Sequence record: NC_054932.1
Length of the DNA stretch: 64,000 bases
Direction: 5' to 3' (one strand)
Source of the DNA: Escherichia phage teqdroes
Shown piece by piece: positions 35,499 to 36,950 of this stretch. Made by a program: the position numbers and the translations under genes. Numbering within the stretch: the first letter of the stretch is position 1; each line of letters opens with the position of its first letter. The notes below the pieces were generated by a model, which saw only the letters and a list, made by a program, of their open reading frames with translations, was not told the origin of the DNA and ran no database searches.

Positions 35499-35792
35499 AT
35501 GAAAAAATTTATTTTTGCTACAATTTTTACTTTGGCTTCTTGTGCTGCTCAGCCTGCTATGGCAGGATATGATAAAGATTTGTGTGAATGGTCTATGACT
35601 GCAGATCAGACTGAAGTTGAAACTCAAATTGAAGCGGATATTATGAATATCGTTGAGCGCGATCGTCCTGAAATGAAAGCTGAAGTGCAAAAACAACTTA
35701 AGTCTGGTGGTGTAATGCAGTATAATTATGTTCTGTATTGCGATAAAAACTTTAATAACAAAAATATCGTAACCGAAATCACAGGCGAATAA
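35499..35792 (+). CDS. sp: Spackle, periplasmic superinfection exclusion protein
   Basis: 97 aa with signal peptide; position as T4 sp. Confidence 0.8.
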   Translation: MKKFIFATIFTLASCAAQPAMAGYDKDLCEWSMTADQTEVETQIEADIMNIVERDRPEMKAEVQKQLKSGGVMQYNYVLYCDKNFNNKNIVTEITGE

Positions 35793-35793
35793 T

Positions 35794-36426
35794 ATGATTT
35801 ATTATATGCACAAAAATCCACCGTTTAAATACGGTAAATTTCCTGATGCACAATGTTATAATATAACGCCTGATGAAAATAACCGTGGATATCTTATTGG
35901 CACAATTTTTGTAATTGTTAAAGATAACGAAATCGTTGCCTGGGCAGATTTTAAAGGTACAACATATGATGTTAATCCGGTGCCTTTCACATATTACAAT
36001 TTAATGGATTTGGCATACGATTATAATTGGTTTAATCATGACACTTTGGCTCATATTGAAGGTGTAGGATTTGATATTTCATATTCGGAATACACTTTAA
36101 GCCCTATGAGTCGAGCCCATAAAGAACCTGAATATTTTTCATTTAGGAAACGTGTAAACTTTAAACGCAGCACAGAGTATGTCGGTGGAATCTTTGTTAA
36201 AGATAATCGAATTATTCGTATTAATTATCCTTTGAGCGTTAGTCAAAAAGATATTGATGTTGATTTAGATTTCACTGAAAATAATATTAATAATATTGCT
36301 TCTGTGTATTTTGGTATCGATCACAAAATTGTAATATGTGGATATGAATTACCGTTTGAAGAACAGCCTAAAGTAAAAGTTTCTATTGACGATCAAATTT
36401 TTAATGCTTTTATGAATAAAGGTTAA
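35794..36426 (+). CDS. hypothetical protein at the T4 61.2 position, 210 aa
   Basis: ORF track; C-terminal tail SIDDQIFNAFMNKG. Confidence 0.55.
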   Translation: MIYYMHKNPPFKYGKFPDAQCYNITPDENNRGYLIGTIFVIVKDNEIVAWADFKGTTYDVNPVPFTYYNLMDLAYDYNWFNHDTLAHIEGVGFDISYSEYTLSPMSRAHKEPEYFSFRKRVNFKRSTEYVGGIFVKDNRIIRINYPLSVSQKDIDVDLDFTENNINNIASVYFGIDHKIVICGYELPFEEQPKVKVSIDDQIFNAFMNKG

Positions 36427-36430
36427 TATG
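36382..36430 (+). repeat. direct repeat copy 1 (49 bp)
   Basis: 46 of 49 nt identical to 36740-36788. Confidence 0.8.
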
Positions 36431-36784
36431 TATAGTTCTGAATTTTCATATTTAAAAATGGAAAAAATTTCATACGATTTTATAGATGAAAAGGTTTATT
36501 ACAGTTTCCATGAACCGCGTTTTAATAGTGAGGTTGGGTTTATTGTAGTAAAAGACAATTTCATTTTAAAGATATATTCGGCATTAAAGGATTTTCACTA
36601 CGAAAATATTAACCTAAAATTTGATAAAGAAAACGTTCGTAATTGTGCAGTAACAATTACAGGAAATAAAGGTACATGTGTTATGCTATCTGATGAAATT
36701 AATGATTTACTAAATGATGCAGAAAATATTACTGCGCCATCTATTGATGACCAAATTTTTAATGCTTTTATGAATAGAGGTTAA
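36428..36784 (+). CDS. hypothetical protein at the T4 61.1 position, 118 aa
   Basis: ORF track; C-terminal tail SIDDQIFNAFMNRG. Confidence 0.55.
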   Translation: MYSSEFSYLKMEKISYDFIDEKVYYSFHEPRFNSEVGFIVVKDNFILKIYSALKDFHYENINLKFDKENVRNCAVTITGNKGTCVMLSDEINDLLNDAENITAPSIDDQIFNAFMNRG

Positions 36785-36788
36785 TATG
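36740..36788 (+). repeat. direct repeat copy 2 (49 bp)
   Basis: 46 of 49 nt identical to 36382-36430. Confidence 0.8.
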
Positions 36789-36950
36789 AAAACATATAAA
36801 GAATTTATTAAAGAAGATATGGTCGCTGGAGATTCAGGTGGTAATCCTGAAAATATCTCTACTGGAACAACGTCAGGCGCTGTAGTAAATAAAGGTCCTG
36901 AGCAGATTCCTAAAAAGAAAAAAGAGGAATCTAAAGAAAAAGAAGAGTAA
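36786..36950 (+). CDS. small K/E-rich hypothetical protein, 54 aa
   Basis: Not in ORF track; ATG within the repeat copy; fills gap before gene 61. Confidence 0.35.
   Translation: MKTYKEFIKEDMVAGDSGGNPENISTGTTSGAVVNKGPEQIPKKKKEESKEKEE

Follow-up and report, generated by a model that had tools for sequence, protein, structure and literature searches.

The closest described system lies in the same part of the T4 genome. The region of adfA, dmd and tifA is regarded as an 'anti-TA island', in which AdfA binds the ADP-ribosyltransferase toxin DarT1 and thereby neutralises it (PMC11257639; 10.1101/2022.04.14.488369). A single residue of RB69 AdfA, position 164, decides DarT1 binding: with Arg at the equivalent site DarT1 is not neutralised, and with His, as in T4, it is (PMC11257639; 10.1101/2022.04.14.488369). 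This work on AdfA (gp61.2, anti-DarT factor A) is that of LeRoux et al. 2022, and is taken here as it is summarised in those two sources. T4 has also been found, in experiments, to amplify and delete DNA in the dmd-tifA island by short-homology recombination (Srikant et al. 2022, 10.1101/2022.04.14.488369). The locus described here lies in the same island, within 1 kb, and resembles the dmd-tifA case in that recombination between direct repeats would alter gene content and leave one copy at the junction. It differs in that the dmd-tifA events used fortuitous microhomologies of 6-10 bp under laboratory selection, whereas the repeat here is 49 bp long and is a coding motif under selection, and in that we are dealing with standing natural polymorphisms, among which no amplified forms were observed.

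Boundary repeats that permit gene shuffling in the hyperplastic regions of T4-type phages are also familiar from PeSL (promoter-early stem-loop) elements, mobile regulatory cassettes that, as Arbiol et al. 2010 reportedly found, mediate modular shuffling in these phages. A PeSL, however, is an intergenic promoter plus stem-loop, whereas the present repeat is coding and runs through TAA-T-ATG into the next gene with no spacer. A PeSL cassette could be ruled out: besides the missing spacer, promoter-like sites are at chance level, terminator-like hairpins are absent, and the predicted RNA structure at its two copies is nothing unusual (fold z=+0.8 and -1.1). An integron-like cassette was likewise ruled out, there being no inverted repeat at the boundaries and no recombinase among helicase, dmd, tifA, sp, 61.1 and primase.

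The window, by which we mean the whole 64,000-nucleotide stretch of Escherichia phage teqdroes (NC_054932.1) that was analysed, is from a Tequatrovirus (T4-like) genome, and a 1.7-kb query around the repeat has hits in 663 phage records, at up to 99.5% identity. Locally the genes run helicase 41, dmd, 61.4/tifA, sp, a 210-aa ORF, a 118-aa ORF, 61.1 and primase 61. The conserved left flank of the variable segment is sp (spackle, gene 61.3; 35499-35792, + strand; Pfam PF25676, E=6e-45). The 210-aa ORF (35794-36426, + strand) is adfA, T4 gene 61.2 (Pfam PF23813, E=3e-139), and is annotated "anti-DarT factor A" in the near-identical record PV857777. The 118-aa ORF (36428-36784, + strand), an AdfA-like single-domain gene that forms a variable cassette between the two repeat copies, corresponds to PHROG 4122, is named RB32ORF033c in some records and is mislabelled 61.2 in T2. 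The conserved right flank is the 54-aa gene 61.1 (36786-36950, + strand), the start codon of which is the final triplet of the second repeat copy. adfA and the 118-aa gene are thus tandem AdfA-superfamily genes within the T-even 'anti-toxin-antitoxin island' that extends from spackle to primase.

Several features of the island came to light along the way. The window's AdfA carries Asn (N167, 36292-36294) at the site equivalent to R164 of RB69 and to a His in T4 (INNIAS, compared with INRIAS and INHIAS). Among 12 AdfA cluster representatives this site is His in 10, Asn in one and Arg in one, with the Asn cluster (P0006) comprising 94 member sequences; Asn looks like a third, uncharacterised specificity allele. 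In Dhakavirus/Gaprivervirus-like loci a 73-aa second homolog of TifA/gp61.4 (35-41% identity) directly follows the tail-bearing gene (L008 6417-6638; L014 811-1032; L016 1329-1550; L019 2343-2564; L013 506-727), so the island has paralog expansions in more than one anti-toxin family. After this homolog comes a 63-aa gene that is also found downstream of adfA in RB69. In the RefSeq record of KNP5 (L004, NC_055713) the 61.4/tifA homolog (382-639) is called 'DNA polymerase' and the 54-aa 61.1 homolog (1004-1168) 'major capsid protein'; in several further records 61.1 is likewise given as a capsid protein, and these are evidently annotation errors propagated between records.

The sequence-only reading had described a 49-bp direct repeat at the 3' ends of the two genes, and repeat finding and a pattern search allowing three mismatches both bear this out. 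The 49-mer occurs in exactly two copies, at 36382-36430 and 36740-36788 (both + strand), 358 nt apart and identical at 46 of 49 nt. Chance or low complexity as its origin can be ruled out, as none of 100 dinucleotide shuffles contained two matches in the same three-mismatch search. Each copy consists of an ORF's final 14 codons, TAA, a single T and the ATG of the next ORF. In copy 1 these are the last codons of adfA (36382-36423), its stop codon (36424-36426) and the start of the 118-aa gene (36428-36430); in copy 2 they are the last codons of the 118-aa gene (36740-36781), its stop codon (36782-36784) and the start of 61.1 (36786-36788). The two proteins therefore share a C-terminal 14-residue peptide, as the same reading had stated: AdfA ends in SIDDQIFNAFMNKG and the 118-aa protein in SIDDQIFNAFMNRG. 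The three mismatches fall at repeat positions 9, 12 and 38 (GAC/GAT, GAT/GAC and AAA/AGA).

This peptide is by no means private to the window. Homolog queries with single proteins were shallow, returning five and 16 matches, and a profile search with mixed families raised this to 71 proteins, of three size classes (~210, 116-125 and 143-148 aa), that share the tail motif (S)(I/V)DDQIFNAFM(N/K)(R/K)(G/D), within which DDQIFNAFM is essentially invariant. At the same locus other Tevenvirinae genera carry the 143-148-aa family (PHROG 8539), often with a 116-125-aa ortholog of the 118-aa gene, and both kinds of protein end in (S)(I/V)DDQIFNAFM(N/K)R(G/D), followed in the DNA by TAATATG. DDQIFNAFM is kept even in members with barely alignable bodies (P0064, P0067, P0068, P0070, P0071), and the tail peptide is thus the most constrained element of these proteins. 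With the tails trimmed, profile-profile comparisons among the families are weakly positive (P=5e-4 to 6e-3, probabilities of 6-32%), and so speak only weakly for a common ancestor of all the modules. AlphaFold2 models of both AdfA and the 118-aa protein place the tail in a separate C-terminal helix beyond a low-confidence linker (tail pLDDT ~55). This predicted detachment from the domain, together with the variable linker that precedes the tail, suggests that the peptide is most likely a shared interaction motif, retained while the bodies diverge to change specificity.

It had also been claimed that the rest of the two proteins is unrelated, a statement that does not hold, weak though the similarity is. 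By BLASTP the 118-aa protein aligns with AdfA residues 111-210 (E=6e-11), and it scores 31.9 bits against the Pfam AdfA family PF23813, above the gathering cut-off of 27, over profile positions 113-211; PF23813 is also the precomputed Pfam label of cluster representatives P0001-P0005. The AdfA match depends on the tail, without which the 118-aa protein has no Pfam hit at E<=1. Nevertheless, a Smith-Waterman comparison of the tail-less body with AdfA residues 101-196 gives z=6.6, with one of 2000 shuffles attaining the observed score, and the similarity is centred on the motif VG-x-I-x-VKDN-x-I. HHalign of the tail-trimmed family profiles is marginal (P=0.006, probability 6.5%), and body identity between the two genes is ~30% at the amino-acid level and 44% at the nucleotide level, against 93% at the nucleotide level in the tail. 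AlphaFold2 predicts a common beta5-alpha topology: the 118-aa protein has one such module plus helices (mean pLDDT 82), and AdfA has two, with a tethered helix at its C-terminus (mean pLDDT 72). No fold among solved structures could be assigned to the model by sequence search or by Foldseek against the PDB (best E=0.024, TM<0.4).

The 118-aa protein thus resembles AdfA in passing the Pfam threshold, in aligning with its C-terminal half, in the motif G-x-I-x-V-K-D-N-x-I, in the shared C-terminal tail and in its place in the same island. It differs in having one domain rather than two, and so lacks the two-module ~210-aa architecture, and in losing its Pfam hit without the tail. We consider the gene an old, remote single-domain paralog of the C-terminal half of AdfA, and would class it as a divergent single-domain relative of AdfA and not as AdfA itself. 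Its tandem position, same orientation and alignment to the C-terminal half could instead be read as a recent partial duplication of the 3' half of adfA, of which the 49 bp would be the sole undiverged part. We find this hardly credible given the body identities just mentioned, the 95-100% conservation of the 118-aa gene across 293 Tequatrovirus records, and the orthologs at 45-47% identity that occupy the same position in other genera, there beside a different tail-bearing gene. Since these orthologs are already in place in other genera, the duplication must be ancient.

T2 is said to 'naturally lack an adfA homolog' (PMC11257639). It does carry the short 118-aa paralog, which is its only AdfA-family member. 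The gene annotated '61.2' in T2 (L003, LC348380; 1501-1857) is this paralog and not an adfA ortholog; the annotated start is the internal Met11, and the full 118-codon frame is intact. In the literature searched we found no mention of RB32ORF033c, the tail peptide, PF23813 or the short paralog.

Why, then, should two such divergent genes end in nearly the same DNA? Where the residues are identical and degenerate, the two genes agree in their codon in 10 of 12 cases in the tail, compared with 10 of 27 in the body (Fisher P=0.014), while the window's own codon usage predicts 6.5 of 12 for the tail (P=0.033 for the observed 10). Peptide conservation and strong codon bias therefore account for most of the nucleotide identity, and the excess over what they predict is so modest that recent conversion is not required for the repeat. 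These same figures favour a reading in which the repeat is a by-product of selection on the peptide and the ribosome-binding site and has no part in recombination. The gene polymorphism described below would then have come about between phages that already differed, by homologous exchange in the long conserved flanks, with sp/tifA to the left and 61.1/primase to the right. It also fits this reading that the tail is just as well conserved in comparisons between genera, among which less recombination is to be expected. Despite these points we regard it as improbable, chiefly on account of the variation within the tails themselves. In L012, which belongs to another genus of the Tevenvirinae, the two paralogous tails share the linked synonymous variants CAG...GCC TTC, a pattern that sits poorly with selection acting alone, and the GACGAT and GATGAC haplotypes are each found in both paralogs. 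The residual excess identity and this mosaic sharing of linked variants together point to what may be occasional gene conversion between tail copies. L012 in this respect resembles the concerted evolution of tandem paralogs by gene conversion, with the difference that the tract here is ~40-50 nt at the extreme 3' end and that its identity is mostly explained without conversion.

The 3' end of the repeat carries a second constraint. Copy 2 contains a Shine-Dalgarno sequence, GAGG (36777-36780), five nt ahead of the 61.1 ATG, and copy 1 has a weakened version, AAGG (36419-36422), ahead of the 118-aa gene. Comparison of the window with L006, L007, L012, L013 and L027 shows a weakened Shine-Dalgarno upstream of the single-domain gene in two genera, as AAGG or, through a terminal Asp codon, as GAGA, with GAGG retained in tails that precede other genes, so that the tail's K/R and G/D polymorphisms also alter a ribosome-binding site. 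One might suppose from this that the whole repeat is kept for a regulatory role at the nucleotide level, be it as RNA structure, promoter, terminator or nuclease site, and not for its peptide, since its last 12-13 nt do hold the Shine-Dalgarno and start context of the next gene and the variants upstream of the 118-aa gene (AAAGG, GAGAT) do weaken GAGG in both genera. The start signal, however, covers just the 3' quarter of the repeat, divergent members change codons yet keep the peptide (GCC/GCT, CAG/CAA, CGA/AGA), and the folding, promoter and terminator results given above run the other way, so that we consider this very unlikely. The main reason for the repeat is instead the conserved, family-wide C-terminal peptide together with the signals for ribosome binding and translation start of the gene that follows. 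Of the earlier proposal of a recombination joint or cassette boundary, what stands is the boundary and joint itself, on the evidence, described below, of the four gene configurations, of the single repeat copy in genomes with adfA only and of the independent assortment of the two halves of the repeat, and what falls is a recent joint as the origin of the repeat.

That the repeat has nonetheless been a site of exchange is suggested by how its variants are distributed. In Tequatrovirus the last three tail codons are AATAGAGGT in all 17 tails that precede 61.1, and all seven tails that precede the 118-aa gene have AATAAAGGT or AATAGAGAT there, so that the 3' codons match the downstream gene in 24 of 24 tails, whichever gene they belong to. 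At repeat positions 9 and 12, by contrast, the GAYGAY haplotype goes with the upstream gene. Among the 24 tails sampled, the four combinations of 5' haplotype and downstream gene are all present (15, 4, 2 and 2). L005 has a hybrid tail, in which a window-type adfA ends in GACGAT...AGAGGT before 61.1, with a 5' end like copy 1 and a 3' end like copy 2, and in L031 a T4-type adfA ends in GATGAC...AAAGGT before the 118-aa gene. With the 3' part of the tail tied to the downstream gene, the 5' part to the upstream gene, and all four combinations present, the four-gamete criterion would call for at least one exchange between repeat positions 12 and 38; it was applied to 24 tails and two synonymous sites, for which recurrent mutation is unlikely. 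Selection without recombination at the repeat does not readily yield either this association or the L005 hybrid.

The left-hand junctions are less tidy. In T2-type and KNP5-type genomes the sp stop codon is followed by a T and then by TAGAGG(T/C)TA(G/A)TATG, corresponding to no more than the repeat's final 14 nt, and the lack of a full repeat copy at these junctions is a further point in favour of exchange in the flanks. Within the 64-kb window this 14-nt remnant is found only at the two tails. A one-step loss of adfA in T2 through microhomology (TGAATA or ATGA) was tried and rejected: the predicted junctions differ by 3-5 nt from the observed GAATAAT|TAGAGGTTAGTATG. Two allelic types also exist for the end of sp and the first third of adfA (window 35750-35830; compare L002 950-1030). 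The window-type allele (ATCGTAACCGAAATCACAGGCGAATAATATGATTTATTA) is similar to that of RB69 as printed in Table 2 of PMC11257639, and the T4-type allele differs, the genes overlapping as TAATG. Each type is found both in genomes that have the 118-aa gene and in genomes that lack it, which makes the locus a mosaic on its left side too.

The sequence-only reading had raised the question of whether the gene at 36428-36784 comes and goes among T-even relatives, and it clearly does, with all four combinations found and relatives by no means always carrying both genes. Both are present in the window, L001, L006, L021, L024, L025 and L031; adfA only in T4, L005, L010, L011 and L020; the 118-aa gene only in T2, L017 and L022; and neither in KNP5 and L023. 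A census with junction-spanning 150-nt queries (megablast, 50,697 phage records) found the adfA-118 junction in 156 records, which carry both genes, and the sp-118 junction in 141 records, including T2, which carry the 118-aa gene only. The junctions to 61.1 scored in 299 records from adfA and in 164 from sp; megablast joins pieces up to ~575 nt apart, so genomes with both genes also score for adfA-61.1 and T2-type genomes for sp-61.1, and the corrected figures of ~143 records with adfA only (including T4) and ~23 with neither gene were obtained by subtraction and are therefore approximate. All counts include RefSeq/GenBank duplicates. Pattern scans of IMG/VR and metagenomes gave 14 and eight loci, useful for other genera and for L031 and too few for a census.

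The direct repeats bracket the 118-aa gene exactly, and genomes with adfA only (T4, L005, L010, L011 and L020; ~143 records) have exactly one repeat copy, running seamlessly into 61.1. The same arrangement, with the single-domain gene likewise present or absent, is seen in a second genus (L019 compared with L013 and L007); in the other Tevenvirinae genera the gene concerned is of 117-122 aa and lies between two tails. Amplification of the intervening gene, which the repeat had been thought able to drive, did not materialise: no tandem forms were found, and the 293 records with the gene body have it at 295 places in all. This absence is also what one would expect if the repeat took no part in recombination. 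Two of the 293 records have two separate matches to the 118-aa body, which could reflect either natural duplication or terminal redundancy of the deposited genome.

Taking these observations together, we think it probable that in the repeat, the shared 3' end of two AdfA-superfamily genes, a motif and start signal kept by selection also serve as a recombination joint. The repeat would have two functions, encoding a C-terminal peptide, predicted to form a short helix on a flexible linker of variable length, and providing the start context of the next gene through the Shine-Dalgarno (GAGG) in its last codons, the TAA, the T and the ATG. Constraint on the peptide, T4 codon bias and constraint on the start signal would hold the copies at ~94% DNA identity, to which occasional gene conversion between them may add. 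T4 is said to recombine efficiently at homologies of ~50 bp (Singer et al. 1982), and 49 bp of homology would be a substrate for homologous recombination, which is very active in the phage, whether inside one genome or between phages that infect the same cell. At the joint the upstream gene body and the downstream gene could then be exchanged, inserted or deleted, and we propose that such exchange gives rise to the natural polymorphism of both genes, adfA only, the 118-aa gene only, or neither; we infer this mechanism, as we do the direction of the events and the role of the peptide.

Given the spread of the tail across divergent families, it is tempting to speculate further that it is a portable helix for docking a partner or neutralising a toxin, and that it defines a wider T-even anti-toxin superfamily made up of the two-domain AdfA and the 116-125-aa and 143-148-aa proteins, in which the bodies set target specificity and modules are mixed at the joint. 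We offer this as a tentative suggestion that may well prove wrong. If it were true, ~140 T-even phages described as lacking adfA, T2 among them, would carry a cryptic single-domain anti-DarT-like factor, and, as the motif doubles as a DNA repeat with the start signal of the next gene inside it, phages would be able to mix and match specificity modules at the joint. In either case, one invariant C-terminal helix across three divergent families is an obvious target for mutagenesis and binding studies.

The finding reveals no new mechanism, and is a tidy and fairly ordinary instance of modular phage evolution. AdfA is among the few characterised phage inhibitors of DarTG defence, its island is a model for the evolution of counter-defence, and adfA turns out to have an unrecognised half-size paralog in ~290 sequenced T-even phages. 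On the reading we consider probable, the locus would be a concrete natural case in which a protein motif under selection gives rise to a recombination joint and thereby makes anti-defence genes modular.
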